From positions 41,690-105,689 of the forward strand of contig JADKCG010000011.1 of the NCBI GenBank assembly GCA_016714745.1: a DNA stretch of 64,000 nucleotides, in the 5' to 3' direction. The stretch comes from Elusimicrobiota bacterium. GTDB taxonomy: Bacteria > Elusimicrobiota > Elusimicrobia > FEN-1173. Below the pieces are notes generated by a model that was given only the letters and a program-made list of their open reading frames with translations, was not told the origin of the DNA and did not search any database. This document shows positions 30,633 to 38,771 of this stretch, in pieces. The stretch's first letter is position 1, and each line of letters begins with the position of its first letter. Position numbers and translations under genes: made by a program.

Positions 30633-31704
30633 TTATGGTTTTCGGCGTGGTTTGGGGGGCTCTTTTTTTCCCATCAGAGCGAGTATTTCTCGGAACTCGC
30701 TGACGGCTTCATCCAAGTCGTCTTTGGCGGGTGGGGAAGGAGGAGGGAGATCGGGAAGAGCTTGGGCTGGGACAGTGGAGGCAGAGGTGGAGGGCATCTG
30801 GGGGATCGCCCATTCGTGGAGCGCTGTCTCTGGTGCCGGCGGCGGAGAGGGGGGGACGATGGGCGGCGGGATCACAGACCGCAGAGCCGCGGGGGAGAGA
30901 ACAGGCGGAGTCTCAGGCGCGGGGATTTTGGGCGCGGGAACCGGGGGAACGGGAACCGCGGGAAGTTTCGGAGGGGCCTTTGGTTCGGGGAGCGGGGGGG
31001 GGTAGGCTTTGGGACGCGTCAGCTGAATCGCCATTTCGCCGATGCTTTGGGCCAATTCTGTCAACTCGTTTTTTCCTGAAAAAGCCGTCATGGCCAATCC
31101 TTTTTCCCCTCGCGCCACACGGTCCGCCCAAGCCCGCATGTTTTGAATGGGGCGAATCACCGCATGGGCCAGAGCCCATAGAAACGCTAAACCGAAGAAC
31201 ACCACCAACCCCAACCCCCCCATCAGTCCCAAATGGTTGCGTTGGAGTTCCCGAACCACTGTATTTTCAGATTGTACCTTGGCGTTTTGAACGCGGCGTT
31301 TGATGCCGTCAAATTTAATGAGCGCACCTCGGCTGTTCGGCGAAAATTCTTTTTCCACCAGGGCCATGGCTTGGACCCGTTTCCCCGGATTTCGTCCCCG
31401 TGGGCTTCCCCTTTTTAACCGCGCCCGCCCACTCCTCGAGCCGTTGCCGCGCTTGAGCGGAGACCTGCACGAGCTGAAGCCGCTCCGACTCATCTCCCAA
31501 AAGAACATAGCTCTCCAACAAACGCACTTGACGCACAAAAAAATACTCGATGTCCGTGACCGCGGCAAATGTTTTCATGGCTCGGCGGCCGTTCAGGAAC
31601 GCCATTTCTTCACGCCGGACATTGATGAAACACCAAGCCATCACAACGCCCGACGACACAGCAAACAGCAAAGAAAACAAAATCACTTTCGATCGGATTC
31701 TCAC
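30633..31704 (-). CDS. Membrane protein with HAMP domain and proline-rich C-terminal tail, frame interrupted once
   Basis: A GTG start at 31704 overlaps the upstream stop. TM1 is RSKVILFSLLFAVSSGVVMAW. ..RQRLEEWAGAVKKG joins SPRGRNPGKRVQAMAL... at the C/T runs 31408-31416. TM2 plus a HAMP-like segment follows (AHAVIRPIQNMRAWADRVARGE...ELTELAQSIGEMAIQL), then a PPPLPEPKAPPKLPAVPVPPVPAP tail. Confidence 0.6.
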
Positions 31705-33353
31705 GGCCGTCCCCCTCCGGATTCTTTTTTAAGTTTGGCGATCTCGTTGTAGACGTCAGAGAGGGTGATCCCCGTGGGACCATATTTCTTTAAGATCCGT
31801 TCCAAGAGCGAAAGCCGTTCGGCCTTGTCGGCCCCTTGAGCAACGGTCTTTTTATAAAAATCCATGGTGATGCGATAATCTGTGGTCACCTGGGCCAGCT
31901 CGGAGTTCACCCGTTCCAATTCCTGAACCGCTGAAGTCACGTCGACCCCTTTGTTGTTGTATTTCTCCAGAGTGGATTTCAGAAGGACCGACCGTTCCTC
32001 CAAACCCGCGCCGCGGGAAACGCGCGTGTTGTAGGCGCGCATGGCGGAATCGAAAGCGGTCGTGTATTCTTGGCGGGCTTTTTGCCGGGACAAACGTTCC
32101 CGTTCCTCGGACGTCAAACGCCGGTTGGGAACGACGACGCTGGTCACATTTGTTTTTTTCGCTTCTTCGAGGTCGGCTTTCAGCCGCTCCAGCTCCGCGG
32201 CGTAATCGCCCAACAGCTTGTTCCGCTCTTCTTTCACAAAAGCGGCTTCTGACTCCACCGCTCTCATCGCGGCTTCCGCGCGCGCCGTCGCCTCACGTTC
32301 CCGCTGAAGTTCTTCAGCCAGATCATCCTCGGATATGGCGTGGCCAAATTTAAAGGACAAGGACACGTTCTGCTGATTGCCCATCCCGTCCGCCGCGCCC
32401 AGGGGAATGGTGAACACGTAATCCAACACAAGCCCGCTCACCTCATAGCCGCCCCCAAAATTCACTTGACGAAAATCCCGCCCCCGACCCCCGCCCCCCC
32501 GCGGAGAGAAAGCAGACCATACCGTTTGAATCCCCATTGTCGTTCTCCACCGAAATGAAGCCGGGTATCTGACTGGCTCTGTAAATAGGTCCGCTGACTG
32601 ACCTCCACGCTGATTTTGCTGTATGTTTTGTCAAATACCGCGCCGATTCGAGTGATCATGGGAAGTCGCAATGTTTGCGAGAGTCCCATGTCCGGCCGGT
32701 TGGCGTTCTCAAAAGACAGCCCCGCCCGAAATCGCGACGAGAGGGCGTAGAGACCGCCCAGATCCACACCCACAGCGGATTTACCGTGGCCGTTTTTAAA
32801 CACCGGATCCTCCGCAAACGTCCGGGCGCCGGGGTCGTTGCCCGAAAACCCATTTAAGGTATCGGCATTTTGACCGAAGGTGCGATCCAACTTTTAAGCC
32901 CACCCCTAAGGCCAGCCTGTCCGATAAAAAGGGACGGCCGTAGGCAAGGGTTATCGTCCGTTCTTTGAAGAGACTATCCACCCGGAACTCATGATATCCA
33001 ACGCCAAACCCGCCCCACCGTCCGTCCGCGGGAAGTGGGAGCGCCGCGCCAACGAACGTTTGCGCCGTTTTGCTCTGGTCCGAGAGGCCTGGGAACGGCC
33101 GCGCGTAGTAAGCCGTGACCTCGGAACGGTACAAGCTCGCCAACCCCGCTGGGTTGTAGTACAAACTATGGACATCGTCCGCCACCGCGGTAAAGGCTTC
33201 CCCCAAGGCCGCCGGCCGGGCACCAACGGGGAATTCGTCGAAAGCGAACAACGGACCCGAGAAGAGGAGAGCGGTGAAGGGCCACAAAAGAATCGTTTTC
33301 ATCCCCCCCCTGAGAGGACGACGAAACACCCTTTTCGCTCGAAGCAAGTTCAT
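31701..33353 (-). CDS. PorV/PorQ/UPF0164-like outer-membrane beta-barrel fused to a long C-terminal coiled coil, frame interrupted twice
   Basis: A signal peptide is followed by EFPVGARPAALGEAFTAVADDVHSLYYNPAGLASL, the motif typical of PorV-type barrels. Three ORF pieces (32796-33353, 32462-32890, 31701-32537) join at the T run at about 32888-32896 and in the G/C-rich 32477-32500. The C-terminal roughly 200 aa are heptad-like (AEELQREREATARAEAAMRAVESEAAF...). Confidence 0.55.
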
Positions 33354-33745
33354 CGGGCCACCACCACAACACCGCTTAAGACAGAACCTTCACCGTCGAT
33401 TTTGTAAACGTAGGGGCCGGACGGGACCCTGTTGCCGTTCTCGTCGCGACCGTCCCAAACAAAGCTGTCGGGTGTGGGGATATTGTCAGACACGGCAACG
33501 AGCGACGCCACGTGGGACCCAGACATATCAATAATAACACCAGAGACTTGGGCCAAACGGGGGTTATCCACCTTAAAATAAACCACATCATTGATTCCGT
33601 CGCCATTGGGGGAGAAGATGCGGGGAAAGACATCCGTGTCCGGGTTAAGGGACAAACAAATCCCCACCGCGGGCGCGGCGAGGATCGTCAAAATAATCCC
33701 TAAAAATAACATCATACGTGTGTCGATCATTGTTGTCAGTCTCAT
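33350..33745 (-). CDS. Small secreted/membrane-anchored protein consisting of a FlgD-Ig/CHU_C-like module
   Basis: A TM/signal segment (MMLFLGIILTILAAPAVG) is followed by FPRIFSPNGDGINDVVYFKVDNP...FVWDGRDENGNRVPSGPYVYKIDGEGSVLSGVVVVAR. The same module ends the upstream 535-aa protein. Confidence 0.6.
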   Translation of the reverse strand: MRLTTMIDTRMMLFLGIILTILAAPAVGICLSLNPDTDVFPRIFSPNGDGINDVVYFKVDNPRLAQVSGVIIDMSGSHVASLVAVSDNIPTPDSFVWDGRDENGNRVPSGPYVYKIDGEGSVLSGVVVVAR

Positions 33746-33752
33746 AAATGAA

Positions 33753-35360
33753 TCAGCGGGCGATAACCATCGTCCCTGTGATGGTTTTTCCCTCCCCCTT
33801 GATCTGATATATGTATACACCCGGAGGCACGCTCTGTCCAGAGGAATCTCGGCCGTCCCATGTCAGGGTATCCTCCGTGGGCGCGCCTGAGCCAGCGGGG
33901 CGGAGAACGCCCACTTCGGCCCCTCCCATATCGATGATTCGTCCGCTCACAGAAGACTGTTTCGGGTTTTGAATCACGAAATAGATCAGATCGTTAATTC
34001 CGTCCCCGTTCGGCGAGAAGATCTGAGGGAAGACCGCGGCCTTATCCAGCGTCAGTTCTGTCGCCACATCAAATTGACGAATTTGGTAGACCCCTTGAAC
34101 CGCCGTATTAAACGATACCGTCAGGTCTCCCGCGCCCACCCCCCTCTCTTCAACATTCGCTTGCGCCACTTTGACCCATGTGGCGCCGTTCCACCACAAG
34201 ACCCCCATCTTATTTTTATCCAAGCCGCCGTTTCCACCTTGATAATTGAGGACCACCGTCATTTGAGGACGGGACAGGACCATCTCTTTCGGCGCGGGAA
34301 CACCGTTGGGTTCGCGCAAACAAAGCGTGTAAGTGGCTCGGGTCCGGCTCCCCCCCGCGTTGGCCAGTGACGAAGTCTCCGGCTCCACACAGAGAAGGAA
34401 ATTCTTTTGGCTGGTCTTAAGTTCCGGGATCAGCCCTTCCGGCACAAAGGCCCGGCTGTACGTCCCGTTTTGGGCAGTGCCGGTTTGTCCCAGGAACCGC
34501 TGAGGCGTGACGTGAAGGAAATTGGAACGCGCGATCGCGGACGTTCGTCCGGTTGTATCAACGGCAACAATGAGGAAATAGGTATCGGCCGCTGGGGTCG
34601 GAATGTCCACAGAGAGTGGGCCAGCCATGGGAACCGATGCGAAGACCGTGCTGGACGCCGCGAAATCGAATAAGCTCGGAGAACGATACACCTCGTATGA
34701 AGCCAAATCCATGATGGGCGTGCCGTCCTCATTTTGAGTGACGGCCGGCCAGGTAATGGTGTAGCCAGGGGTTGTGCGGGTGACCACAAACCCAGCGACG
34801 GGAGCCGGAGGCTTGGTATCGCCCAGGCTCTTCGTATAAACAAAAGCTTGTAGGACCGGAGTGGCCGCCTTTGTATCAATCGGCGACGAATTTCCTTTAA
34901 GATCAACGCTCTCGAGCGCAAACCAATAGGAAGTGCCGGGAGTTAAGTTGGCCTGCATGGTTTCAGCGTTTCCAGGATCCGCCGGAATTGACGGTGGGGA
35001 TCCCGCCGTCAACGCTTTGTTCCACCAGGTCGTTGTGCTCCCACCGCCCGCCATTTCGCTGGAGATGGAGAAGGTGGCGTATTTCACGGTATAAGAGTTG
35101 ACCGGGGCGGTTGTTGTGAACAACCACCCGTTATCTTCAGGCGCTGTCCATGTGAGAATAACTTCACCAGGCACGATCGTGGCCAGCGCGGCCAAATCGA
35201 GCACAGCGTCAGGCGCGAAGGTGTCGTTGATGTTGATGGTGAGGTTGAGGTCTTCCGTGAGCGCGGCCCTCCCAGGCACCGCCCCCAAAGACAAAAGGAC
35301 TCCGAGGGTCGCCCACAGCGACCCACGCAGGACTTTCATCAAAGCCTCGTTCCTCTTCAC
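33753..35360 (-). CDS. Secreted multi-domain protein (Fn3-like repeats) with C-terminal FlgD-Ig/CHU_C-like module
   Basis: Signal peptide. Fn3-like segments (LTWTAPEDNGW...YTVKYA; YTITWPAVTQNEDGTPIMDLASYEVYRS). The C-terminus reads FPQIFSPNGDGINDLIYFVIQNP...LTWDGRDSSGQSVPPGVYIYQIKGEGKTITGTMVIAR. Confidence 0.6.
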   Translation of the reverse strand: MKRNEALMKVLRGSLWATLGVLLSLGAVPGRAALTEDLNLTININDTFAPDAVLDLAALATIVPGEVILTWTAPEDNGWLFTTTAPVNSYTVKYATFSISSEMAGGGSTTTWWNKALTAGSPPSIPADPGNAETMQANLTPGTSYWFALESVDLKGNSSPIDTKAATPVLQAFVYTKSLGDTKPPAPVAGFVVTRTTPGYTITWPAVTQNEDGTPIMDLASYEVYRSPSLFDFAASSTVFASVPMAGPLSVDIPTPAADTYFLIVAVDTTGRTSAIARSNFLHVTPQRFLGQTGTAQNGTYSRAFVPEGLIPELKTSQKNFLLCVEPETSSLANAGGSRTRATYTLCLREPNGVPAPKEMVLSRPQMTVVLNYQGGNGGLDKNKMGVLWWNGATWVKVAQANVEERGVGAGDLTVSFNTAVQGVYQIRQFDVATELTLDKAAVFPQIFSPNGDGINDLIYFVIQNPKQSSVSGRIIDMGGAEVGVLRPAGSGAPTEDTLTWDGRDSSGQSVPPGVYIYQIKGEGKTITGTMVIAR

Positions 35361-35384: not shown

Positions 35385-36296
35385 TTACTCGGTGGTCACG
35401 AAGACCCTTGAAAATATGCTCAGGGGGAAGTCATATCCGTCCATCTCCGCTTGAATGAGGAAAAGGAATTTCTTTCCTTTGTTCTCCGGAATGTCCGGGA
35501 TTGTCAACGTCAGGTCTGTCCCCTTGATCTGATCCGGTTTAATTTTCATGCGAGGCGATGTGATGTTCAACCACGCCGGATCCGGGACATCCCATCCTGT
35601 TTCTTTCTGGGTGTTGTCGGTGCGAACGCTGGTCAACTTCAGCTTAACGGGATCGTTGCCTCGGTTTGTCACCTTTAAGAGAATATTTTTCATTCCCTTT
35701 AACGTAACAGGTTTCCCGAGCGGAACATTCTCCAACCGGTTGACCGTCGGTGTCAGGGCCAGGTCCAAAGCGCCCAGAACCATGCGTTTCTTCTCTTTTT
35801 TGGCCGAGGAGGGACCCATCGCTCCAACGGTGAACCGAATGAAGCTGTTGATGGCCACGGCGATTTCTTCCGGTCCCTCGGATCCCGCATGAATGTTCAC
35901 CTGGAAGTGGCGTCCGATCAGTTTCGGATCATTGGGCACCGAGAGAATCACTTCCGCGCTGGCCAGATCACCGGCGCCCAACTTGAAACGGTTCGGAATA
36001 ATTTTCAACCATTCCGGATTGGGGATCGGCTCGAAATCCAATTTTGCTCCCGCAGGGCCGGGAACAGGGATTTCGGGAACCACGCTCACTTCGATGGGGT
36101 AATCCGAGCCGTTAATGAGCACATAGGGCACGCCCCGAATCTGACGGATATTGATGTCAGACCCCGGCTGAACGTTTTCCATCTCAATCTCAGGAAACCG
36201 AACGGCCAGGGACAACTTTCCCCATGCGGTCGATCCCAAAAGAAAGAAGACGCCCAGAACCCATCCACACTGAATTCGTCCTAATTTATTGCCCAT
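35385..36296 (-). CDS. Secreted protein with an internal two-fold duplication (hypothetical)
   Basis: Signal peptide (WVLGVFFLLGSTAWG). The two halves share a pattern: IPNPEWLKIIPNRFKLGAGD..VILSVPNDPKLIGRHFQVNIHA versus VPDPAWLNITSPRMKIKPDQ..LTLTIPDIPENKGKKFLFLIQA. Confidence 0.5.
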   Translation of the reverse strand: MGNKLGRIQCGWVLGVFFLLGSTAWGKLSLAVRFPEIEMENVQPGSDINIRQIRGVPYVLINGSDYPIEVSVVPEIPVPGPAGAKLDFEPIPNPEWLKIIPNRFKLGAGDLASAEVILSVPNDPKLIGRHFQVNIHAGSEGPEEIAVAINSFIRFTVGAMGPSSAKKEKKRMVLGALDLALTPTVNRLENVPLGKPVTLKGMKNILLKVTNRGNDPVKLKLTSVRTDNTQKETGWDVPDPAWLNITSPRMKIKPDQIKGTDLTLTIPDIPENKGKKFLFLIQAEMDGYDFPLSIFSRVFVTTE

Positions 36297-36449
36297 GCGA
36301 TTTCTCCTTCATCTCGTCGTTGTCATTTCGCATTCGAGACGCTCTTCTCGGTTCGCTCAGAAAGACAACCGCCAGGTCAGACGCTTCAACGTCCTCTCTA
36401 AAACGGCGTTCTTGCAAAACCGAAACGCGATCCCTTCTGCGAGAGAGTC

Positions 36450-36989
36450 TTAGTTGGCCGATACCTCCACGGTAAACGACCGCAGGGTCATGATGGTCGA
36501 CGAGGTCGGCATGTCGATCTTAAACCACAGACCGCGGGTCGTCGTCGCGTTGAACACAGAACCGTCTTGGTCGCCGGAATACACAGCGCCAACGCCCGTG
36601 GCCAACACCGCCGACCCTTGCGTCACCACATCGTCGTTCGCGAGGAAGTTGCCCGCCGCCGGCGCCACCGAGTTAAACAACGCCCGCAGGTTATAGCGGT
36701 CCGCTCCGACCGTCGAACTCGACGTCCACACGCCGTCCGCCGTCTTGATCCGCAGTCCCAACGTTTCGGGAACTGTCCCGTTGTTGGTCACGGTCACTGA
36801 CGAACTCACGTTGTCAACGGACCCCAAGGTGAGCGTGCCGAGGGCCAACGTTCCCGTCGACAAGGTCAAGCTCTTCGATCCGTTCGGCGTCACGGTGAGG
36901 ATCAAGTCCGCCGTCGTTGCCGCTTTCACTCCTGAACCAAACAGCATGAGGCTTCCCAAAACAAGAAGCCCGGTGAGTGTTTTTTTCAT
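36450..36989 (-). CDS. Secreted 179-aa putative surface/fibre subunit, tandem copy A
   Basis: MKKTLTGLLVLGSLMLFGSGVKA/ATTADLILTVTPNGSKSLTLSTGTLALGTLTLGS...TVTNNGTVPETLGLRIKTADGVW...LWFKIDMPTSSTIMTLRSFTVEVSAN. RBS is GGAGACACACA. The 201-aa ORF-track version includes a non-genuine upstream extension. Confidence 0.7.
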   Translation of the reverse strand: MKKTLTGLLVLGSLMLFGSGVKAATTADLILTVTPNGSKSLTLSTGTLALGTLTLGSVDNVSSSVTVTNNGTVPETLGLRIKTADGVWTSSSTVGADRYNLRALFNSVAPAAGNFLANDDVVTQGSAVLATGVGAVYSGDQDGSVFNATTTRGLWFKIDMPTSSTIMTLRSFTVEVSAN

Positions 36990-37066
36990 TGTGTGTCTCC
37001 TTAGTTGGCTGCTACGTCCACGGTAAACGACCGCAGGGATGAGTATTCTTTTCATTGTCTGTCTCC

Positions 37067-37606
37067 TTAGTTGGCTGATACTTCCACGGTAAACGACCGC
37101 AGGGTCATGATGGTCGACGAGGTCGGCATGTCGATCTTAAACCACAGACCGCGGGTCGTCGTCGCGTTGAACACAGAACCGTCTTGGTCGCCGGAATACA
37201 CAGCGCCAACGCCCGTGGCCAACACCGCCGACCCTTGCGTCACCACATCGTCGTTCGCGAGGAAGTTGCCCGCCGCCGGCGCCACCGAGTTAAACAACGC
37301 CCGCAGGTTATAGCGGTCCGCTCCGACCGTCGAACTCGACGTCCACACGCCGTCCGCCGTCTTGATCCGCAGTCCCAACGTTTCGGGAACTGTCCCGTTG
37401 TTGGTCACGGTCACTGACGAACTGACGTTGTTAACGGACCCCAAGGTGAGCGTGCCGAGGGCCAACGTCCCCGTCGACAAGGTCAAGCTCTTCGTTCCGT
37501 TCGGCGTCACGGTGAGGATCAAGTCCGCCGTCGTTGCCGCTTTCACTCCTGAACCAAACAGCATGAGGCTTCCCAAAACAAGAAGCCCGGTGAGTGTTTT
37601 TTTCAT
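37067..37606 (-). CDS. Secreted 179-aa putative surface/fibre subunit, tandem copy B
   Basis: Differs from copy A by only a few residues (NGTKS for NGSKS, SVNNV for SVDNV) and is offset by exactly 617 nt. Confidence 0.7.
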   Translation of the reverse strand: MKKTLTGLLVLGSLMLFGSGVKAATTADLILTVTPNGTKSLTLSTGTLALGTLTLGSVNNVSSSVTVTNNGTVPETLGLRIKTADGVWTSSSTVGADRYNLRALFNSVAPAAGNFLANDDVVTQGSAVLATGVGAVYSGDQDGSVFNATTTRGLWFKIDMPTSSTIMTLRSFTVEVSAN

Positions 37607-37683
37607 TGTGTGTCTCCTTAGTTGGCTGATACTTCCACGGTAAACGACCGCAGGGATGAGTATTCTTTTCATTGTCTGTCTCC

Positions 37684-38224
37684 TTAGTTGGCTGATACTT
37701 CCACGGTAAACGACCGCAGGGTCATGATGGGCGACGAGGTCGGCATGTCGATCTTAAACCACAGACCGCGGGTCGTCGTCGCGTTGAACACAGAACCGTC
37801 TTGGTCGCCGGAATACACAGCGCCAACGCCCGTGGCCAACACCGCCGACCCTTGCGTCACCACATCGTCGTTCGCGAGGAAGTTGCCCGCCGCCGGCGCC
37901 ACCGAGTTAAACAACGCCCGCAGGTTATAGCGGTCCGCTCCGACCGTCGAACTCGACGTCCACACGCCGTCCGCCGTCTTGATCCGCAGTCCCAACGTTT
38001 CGGGGAACTGTCCCGTTGTTGGTCACGGTCACTGACGAACTGACGTTGTTAACGGACCCCAAGGTGAGCGTGCCGAGGGCCAACGTCCCCGTCGACAAGG
38101 TCAAGCTCTTCGTTCCGTTCGGCGTCACGGTGAGGATCAAGTCCGCCGTCGTCGCCGCTTTCACTCCTGAACCAAACAGCATGAGGCTTCCCAAAACGAG
38201 AAGCCCGGTGAGTATTTTTTTCAT
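37684..38224 (-). CDS. Secreted putative surface/fibre subunit, tandem copy C, with a 1-nt insertion (G4 versus G3 at 38002-38005)
   Basis: ORFs 37925-38224 and 37684-37995 together reproduce copies A and B. The span is 541 nt versus 540. Confidence 0.65.
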
Positions 38225-38298
38225 TGTGTTCCTCCTGTTGTTTATGATTTTGTGCCTTCAATTTCGGCCAACCCCTAAGGTTCCGATTGACCTTCTTC

Positions 38299-38327
38299 TA
38301 TATACCCCCAAAATACCCACTTTTCAA
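38299..38327 (-). promoter_or_regulatory. Sigma-70-type promoter for the tandem subunit operon
   Basis: The minus strand reads TTGAAA-N17-TATATA (plus-strand tatata 38299-38304, tttcaa 38322-38327). An A/T-rich tract lies upstream, and the site is about 70 nt 5' of ATG 38224. Confidence 0.5.
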
Positions 38328-38771
38328 GGCTTTTTTTATAAATTTAACAATCAATTTAAAGCTGTAAATATAGATCGATTATTGTTTTTAATAATACCCG
38401 ACATTGTCTCGGCCCTGTTTGGTTCCGGATTGTTTGAGAAATGGATATTGTTGGTATATTTTTGCCGCTATTGGTTTTGTGATTGGTTGTCCGTAACGGC
38501 GGTTCGAATGCTGGAGGGAGAAAAATTTTATGGATTTTATGGCACGGGATTGCGACCGCGCCAGCGGAAGTTCCGCAGGGGAGCGACCGGCCCGTGAGAG
38601 GAACGGGCGCTGTGAGAATCCCGTTTTTGTTTGGACCCGGACTTTGCAATAGGCGCCAGCACCGAGAGGAAGAAGCCGGTGACTGTTGCGACGAGAAACG
38701 CGAAAGCGGTGCGGTGTCTACGGCTGAGAAAAAGTCCCAGATTCTTCGTCTTGAAAAATCGGGGTGAAGCC

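Follow-up and report, generated by a model that had tools for sequence, protein, structure and literature searches.

Probable tandem amplification of a putative surface-fibre subunit gene in an Elusimicrobiota genome, with head-to-tail gene remnants in its spacers

Tandem duplication and amplification of bacterial genes, as known from Salmonella and E. coli, starts with a duplication at a short junction and proceeds by RecA-dependent unequal crossover between the resulting repeats. Genes for filament subunits also occur in several copies, examples being the tandem flagellin genes flaA/flaB and the archaeal flaB1-B3. Here we describe an array of three nearly identical genes on the minus strand, at positions 36450-38224 of a 64,000-nucleotide (nt) stretch of DNA from an Elusimicrobiota bacterium (GenBank assembly GCA_016714745.1, contig JADKCG010000011.1, positions 41,690 to 105,689), which we call the window; the genome that holds the array is referred to as G000. 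An earlier note, made from the letters of the window alone, had described the array as an exact 617-bp tandem triplication in which every spacer is a collapsed mini-copy of the gene. A literature search found nothing specific to such an array. We consider it likely that the array is a real tandem amplification of the gene for the major subunit of a secreted cell-surface fibre, probably of the donor-strand type, and that it arose by the history proposed below.

Three genes and the remnants between them

A repeat search of the window recovered three copies of the unit, with start-to-start distances of 617/617 for a 300-nt block (99-100% identity) and of 617/618 for a 234-nt block (98% identity), and an alignment of the three units agrees. 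The genes lie head to tail with starts at 38224, 37606 and 36989, corresponding to a period of 618/617 nt, and the copies are 98-99% identical. Between them, the coding copies of genes 1-3 carry 10 substitutions and one 1-nt insertion, so the triplication stands while the word "exact" does not, and the genes are on the minus strand. At the protein level, genes 2 and 3 differ at two of 179 residues (T38S and N59D), and genes 1 and 2 at just two residues if the frameshift in gene 1 is disregarded; this frameshift is due to an extra C in a run of Cs (a G run on the plus strand, 38002-38005), which leaves ORFs (open reading frames) of 99 and 103 amino acids (aa). An exact-protein look-up with the product of gene 2 gave no other record.

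Both spacers are 77 nt long and consist of an 11-nt ribosome-binding-site spacer (GGAGACAGACA), a 55-nt mini-copy of the gene and, just before the real ATG, another 11-nt spacer (GGAGACACACA). In the mini-copy, a 19-nt head (ATGAAAAGAATACTCATCC) is joined to a 36-nt tail, CTGCGGTCGTTTACCGTGGA[A/C]GTA[T/G]CAGCCAACTAA, which ends with GCCAACTAA. The same organisation emerged independently from Tandem Repeats Finder, in the form of a 66-nt unit (tail, spacer and head) repeated 2.0 times at each junction, with 92% matches at 36974-37104 and 95% at 37591-37721. The join itself, CTCATCC followed directly by CTGCGG, is identical in the two mini-copies and occurs twice in the whole genome and nowhere else. 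The heads of the mini-copies and those of the genes are separated by 2-3 differences in 19 nt, and 2 nt distinguish one mini-copy from the other. The view of the array as full genes alternating with head-to-tail remnants is thus borne out for both spacers, as is the 19-nt length given for the head; the tail, put at "33 nt or so", is 36 nt long.

Head and tail are joined out of frame, as the earlier note had said; what had been overlooked is that the ATG of each mini-copy is in frame with the gene that follows. The 66 nt amount to 22 codons without a stop, and because the mini-copy ATG therefore runs uninterrupted into the next gene, the list of ORFs contains two of 201 aa that begin MKRILIPAVVYRG, one formed by mini-copy 1 and gene 2 (37067-37672) and the other by mini-copy 2 and gene 3 (36450-37055). 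If translation began at the mini-copy ATG, MKKTLTGLLVLGSLMLFGSGVKA would be preceded by 22 more residues, and the mature protein would be unchanged provided that the signal peptide were still cleaved.

These properties raise the question of whether the mini-copy is functional, its second ribosome-binding site and in-frame start serving to boost or couple translation on a polycistronic mRNA, or to yield an N-terminally extended precursor with other targeting. Each mini-copy does retain an AAGGAG-type ribosome-binding site at the spacing found in the real genes, and it reads in frame and stop-free into its neighbour. The chance of a segment being in frame and stop-free over 22 codons is, however, by our estimate roughly 1 in 8. 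None of the arrays examined in relatives contains a mini-copy, their spacers being unrelated sequences, often with hairpins, which argues against a conserved role, and 2 substitutions in 66 nt have accumulated in the mini-copies since the last duplication, compared with 1 in ~525 nt of comparable coding sequence, which suggests relaxed constraint. Nor does the doubled junction fold better than shuffled sequences (z = +1.6); an RNA element was ruled out both there and in the spacer between gene 3 and the 303-aa gene downstream of it (z = +0.45). A functional mini-copy is therefore, in our judgement, quite unlikely. We favour a scar that would be a passive by-product rather than a functional spacer, and that would be tolerated in that its ATG reads in frame and stop-free into the next gene and the 22 added residues precede a signal peptide that is cleaved anyway; the mini-copy is probably harmless. 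A 201-aa relative, P0002, was considered as a case of a conserved extension and rejected: read-through from the end of a contig accounts for its extra residues, and the spacer of its array is an ordinary one of 147 nt with a hairpin.

Origin of the array and its counterparts in relatives

The substitutions that distinguish the three genes are not scattered. Gene 2 is identical to gene 3 at the three informative sites nearest the start (gene positions 11, 27 and 72) and identical to gene 1 at the remaining six (112, 138, 175, 183, 525 and 531), so that the match changes only once along the gene; the difference at position 493 is confined to gene 1. By our count, only 2 of the 84 possible orderings of the nine informative sites give a two-block pattern this clean. 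Gene 2 is a hybrid, with a 5' end like gene 3 and a 3' end like gene 1. This combination, 5' from the distal and 3' from the proximal gene, is the orientation predicted by one unequal crossover in a two-gene array.

We propose that the array passed through three steps, in an order that is our reconstruction from the present sequence. The starting point would have been a two-gene array with 11-nt spacers, in which the stop codon overlapped the next ribosome-binding site (TAAGGAG). A single illegitimate event would then have created the join of head and tail, either because the junction segment (tail, spacer and head; 66 nt) was duplicated or because a former middle gene lost its body by a deletion of 485 nt; the sequence appears to fit both alike. 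The ACC codon that is present at both breakpoints (CTC-ACC-GGG in the head and ATG-ACC-CTG in the tail) is a candidate microhomology for this event. Finally, one homologous unequal crossover between gene B on one chromatid and gene A on the other, located between gene positions 72 and 112, would have given A, scar, a hybrid with the 5' part of B and the 3' part of A, scar and B, which is the present arrangement. That both mini-copies share one identical join indicates that the scar was made once and was then copied along with the gene. The earlier note had invoked repeated unequal recombination at short homologies; the hybrid nature of gene 2 upholds unequal recombination, whereas the single shared join, followed by a homologous crossover, makes repeated short-homology events unnecessary. 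An origin from a simple array of three genes by a single duplication of 617 nt was rejected, as it would give four genes and one scar rather than three genes and two.

Copy number differs among related genomes, a comparison that the earlier note had called for. The orthologous locus contains a single copy in G003 and in G004, two adjacent copies in G002, two copies with the 303-aa gene between them in G001, and three in G000. Homologous arrays in more distant genomes contain three copies (G020) and six (G037, a single-contig genome), so that the range extends from 1 to 6 copies. The tandem arrays of G002 and of two further genomes (G014 and G011), with two copies each, and those of G020 and G037 all come from independent assemblies. 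In a maximum-likelihood tree of 21 copies, paralogues group by genome in 7/7 multi-copy genomes; the number of label changes on the tree is 10, the minimum possible, which was matched by 0/200 shuffles. This clustering suggests that the copies have been repeatedly duplicated or kept alike by gene conversion.

Two relatives offer additional views of the locus. In G001 (L025, G001:C1, 15555-17782), the order is subunit gene, 303-aa gene, second subunit copy and 535-aa gene, so that the duplicate is non-adjacent; frame switches are present in the 303-aa gene and in the second subunit copy, and this assembly may also be error-prone. In G002 (L008, G002:C63, 1501-2613), the mature proteins of the two tandem copies differ at just two of their first 130 residues (C/T81A and A113T), and seven of the next 13 residues, near the C-terminus, differ (SGLAFVSGTTRG versus NGSVFASSDTRG). 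The G002 pattern looks like the edge of a gene-conversion tract.

We also considered whether the array might be an assembly artefact, the true genome having one or two copies, or junctions without mini-copies, and the third unit or the 66-nt doublings having been mis-assembled from near-identical repeats or from co-assembled strain variants. G000 is a metagenome-type draft (38 contigs, 2.95 Mb) with a completeness of 83.7%, compared with 94-99% for its genus relatives, and its consensus errors are demonstrable: when 73 conserved ORFs of the same-genus genome G003 were compared with the whole assembly, there were 9 frame switches per ~85 kb of aligned conserved coding sequence, on five contigs and mostly at homopolymer runs (~1 per 9 kb). 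Stretches of ~300 nt are identical in all copies and hard to resolve, the contigs of short-read relatives break at the locus (L035 begins 67 nt upstream of a subunit gene), and the junction was not seen in any independent sequence. On the other hand, the error profile, with its homopolymer indels and a contig of 108 kb, points to long reads, which easily span the 1.8 kb of the array, so that errors at individual bases should not undermine the copy number. The copies bear distinct substitutions in a biologically sensible hybrid pattern, and tandem arrays of the subunit gene recur in independent assemblies, including the six-copy single-contig genome. Within each junction, the two 66-nt copies match at 92-95% and are not identical; with 2-3 of 19 nt differing in the heads, this implies that the scar predates the last duplication and is no assembler stutter. 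Taken together, these observations make an artefact unlikely.

Single bases in G000 call for more caution. Frame switches in the window include those at 31385-31396, 32477-32501, 32892 and 38002-38005, the last being the C run of gene 1. Past its frameshift, gene 1 differs from gene 2 by 1 substitution in ~320 nt. Because homopolymer frameshifts are frequent in this assembly, the extra C is probably a homopolymer consensus error of a long-read-type assembly. Decay specific to the operon was rejected as the cause of its four frameshifts, similar frame switches being present in unrelated genes on four other contigs. Arguments from frameshifts, pseudogenes or spacing in G000 need read support, as do the array copy number and the frame calls.

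The frameshift also bears on the idea that the array is a variation device, in which antigenic or phase variation would come from alternative subunits, from a copy number that changes often or from slippage of the C run that switches gene 1 off. Tandem near-identical repeats are prone to recombination, the copy number differs among species, and frameshifted copies are also found in other metagenomes (P0035 and P0046). Yet the encoded proteins are nearly identical, the C run of just 3-4 nt is too short for classical slipped-strand phase variation, and comparable frameshifts occur genome-wide in housekeeping-type genes and hence look like assembly noise. We regard a variation device as very improbable. 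The earlier suggestion of "dosage or antigenic variation" is accordingly plausible in its first part and made unlikely in its second by the mere two residue differences between genes 2 and 3 and between genes 1 and 2. The extra copies probably serve the dosage of an abundant structural protein, and the recurrence of multi-copy arrays across the class agrees with this.

The subunit and its operon

Searches with the 179-aa product against Pfam, NCBIfam and the sequences of the PDB returned nothing above noise, and at E<=1 no Pfam family, including the TasA/camelysin family (Peptidase_M73), was matched beyond noise by any of 30 family members. An AlphaFold2 model built with 30 homologues has a predicted local distance difference test score (pLDDT) of 84.7 and is a beta-sandwich; ahead of the sandwich, residues 24-40 have no regular secondary structure in the monomer model. 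When the PDB was searched with Foldseek, the top matches were all donor-strand fibre subunits: TasA, CsuA/B, the pilin domain of PapG, CS20, CfaB, FimI/FimG/FimA and the archaeal cannulae (CanA). A profile search of 1.84 billion representatives (cut-off E<=1e-3) found 1,362 members of the family, which occur in two layouts. In the first, the protein stands alone, is ~180 aa long and covers the whole profile; in the second, the domain lies at the extreme C-terminus of large proteins, the longest of 3,214 aa; it begins at profile position 36-40 and is devoid of the N-terminal extension. The latter resembles the arrangement seen in chaperone-usher or donor-strand pilus tip adhesins. G000 itself has an example of the second layout (C32:4259-4711, inside a 767-aa open frame). 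With moderate confidence, we take the product to be a secreted fibre subunit, probably of the donor-strand type, and the Foldseek matches and family layouts are in keeping with the "surface subunit" of the earlier note.

Several points weigh against the combined reading of a genuine amplification, with the proposed history, of a donor-strand fibre subunit. The Foldseek matches are weak, with E values of 1.5e-3 to 0.1 and template modelling (TM) scores of 0.3-0.45; the best, at 1.5e-3, is 8aur (TasA). A clean join at ACC would be 1 nt shorter and in frame, and the observed one has an extra T, which needs either an inserted T or another mechanism. Gene conversion could yield a hybrid pattern identical to that of gene 2. 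The copy number and base differences come from one assembly with known indel errors, and a 30-mer spanning the junction had no exact match in public metagenome contigs or genome contigs, so that there is no independent sighting. Lastly, the neutrality of the 22-residue extension is judged from sequence.

The genes that surround the array are listed in Table 1. The region 5' of gene 1 is AT-rich over ~230 nt (38240-38470) and, in addition to the candidate promoter on the minus strand, contains two promoter-like sites on the plus strand.

Table 1. Features of the array and its operon, in coordinates of the window
Feature	Position	Strand	Description
Promoter-like site	38341..38368	-	TTTACA-16-TAAATT with TG; consensus scan only; candidate array promoter 5' of gene 1
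Gene 1	37684..38224	-	First in transcription order; 541 nt; own ribosome-binding site AGGAGGAACACA
Mini-copy 1	37618..37672	-	Flanking 11-nt spacers with ribosome-binding sites at 37673-37683 and 37607-37617
Gene 2	37067..37606	-	540 nt; intact 179-aa precursor; N-terminal signal-peptide-like segment MKKTLTGLLVLGSLMLFGSGVKA
Mini-copy 2	37001..37055	-	Join as in mini-copy 1; 2 substitutions in the tail part
Gene 3	36450..36989	-	540 nt; intact 179-aa precursor; T38S and N59D relative to gene 2
303-aa gene	35385..36296	-	Next gene downstream of the array; secreted; two PapD-like/ASH immunoglobulin (Ig) domains (AlphaFold2 pLDDT 82.4)
535-aa protein gene	33753..35360	-	Same operon; fn3-like and CHU_C/FlgD-Ig-like C-terminal domains
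PorV/PorQ/PorP-like outer-membrane barrel gene	31704..33449	-	~573 aa in relatives; two frame switches give three ORFs here

The 303-aa protein is a candidate chaperone for the subunits. It matches ASH-domain proteins in Foldseek at ~1e-13 and the chaperones FimC, Caf1M, CsuC and CfaA at ~1e-7, and has no PapD match in Pfam. Its gene comes after the subunit gene or genes in the relatives of the same genus, as it does in a metagenome contig; G001, where it lies between the two subunit copies, is the exception. The CHU_C-like domain of the 535-aa protein scores 28.1 bits against a cut-off of 27 bits. A small ORF of 156 aa (33350-33820, minus strand) is paralogous to the CHU_C/FlgD-Ig-like C-terminal domain of this protein and is found in the same place in G001, G002, G003 and a Joint Genome Institute (JGI) contig. 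The barrel gene is intact in G003 (573 aa), and its match to PorV_fam, at 62 bits, is under the 90-bit cut-off. A type IX secretion (T9SS) module would combine cargo bearing a C-terminal domain (CTD), a neighbouring PorP/PorV-like barrel and the SprA/Sov translocon; SprA_N had no match in G000, but none in the control either, so that this negative carries no weight. The barrel gene is followed by a HAMP-domain gene (31005-31704, minus strand) with one split. In other parts of these genomes, paralogous subunit genes are likewise ~5 kb from PorV-like genes.

With the E. coli control matching in each case, neither Usher (PF00577) nor PapD_N (PF00345) has a match anywhere in G000, which is 83.7% complete. 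As far as these profile searches can tell, the system is not a classical chaperone-usher one. We put forward, tentatively and as a possibility that we think is more doubtful than the amplification itself, that the triplicated gene encodes the major subunit of a hitherto undescribed fibre system in Elusimicrobiota, one based on donor-strand exchange, in which a two-domain PapD-like/ASH chaperone would work with a PorV/PorP-like barrel replacing the usher. Dosage would be tuned in each lineage by rapid tandem expansion and homogenisation (1-6 copies), and the array of G000 would be a caught-in-the-act record of that process.

Comparison with known systems

With its constant period, shared join and recombinant internal copy, the array is best regarded as an ordinary bacterial tandem amplification. 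Like the products of duplication-amplification, it has head-to-tail units of constant period with one novel join at every boundary, a hybrid internal copy and a copy number that differs between species. It is unlike them in that its join falls within the head and tail of the gene itself and therefore resembles a miniature gene that has a ribosome-binding site of its own; also, unlike amplifications selected in the laboratory, the array appears to be fixed in a wild genome. What the array offers, being a textbook outcome of duplication and unequal crossover, is of practical and illustrative use: a recombination join can pose as a small gene, complete with ribosome-binding site, and give rise to misleading 201-aa ORFs, which matters for annotation rather than for mechanism. 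Within an uncharacterised, putative surface-fibre operon with a wide distribution in Elusimicrobiota, the gene of the array is also the most amplified one and is thereby a pointer to the major structural subunit.

The array shares with flagellin arrays the presence of adjacent, very similar genes for one abundant polymerising subunit that are kept alike within a genome by recombination. The protein family is a different one (with no Pfam match), however, the copies are far more alike, at 98-99% DNA identity, and a recombination scar lies between them. Partial copies of a pilin gene near an expressed pilin gene are also a feature of Neisseria pilE/pilS, but the pilS copies are long variable coding segments that act as donors in gene conversion, whereas the mini-copy, at 19 + 36 invariant nt, cannot supply variation.

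The closest resemblance of the product is to the subunits of chaperone-usher pili (Fim, Pap, Csu and CFA/I) and of TasA-type fibres, with which it shares a secreted Ig-like subunit of ~155 aa, a conserved beta-prone N-terminal extension and the best structural matches. As in chaperone-usher systems, a two-domain PapD-like protein is encoded alongside, and giant relatives carry the domain at the C-terminus without the extension, as tip adhesins do. The differences from these pili and from TasA are that the family has no sequence-level membership in either and that the genome has no usher or PapD_N match; instead of an usher, the operon encodes a PorV/PorQ/PorP-like barrel, along with a protein that bears a CHU_C-like domain. 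Taken as a whole, the operon, possibly an usher-less donor-strand fibre system of Elusimicrobiota, is of more interest than the array.

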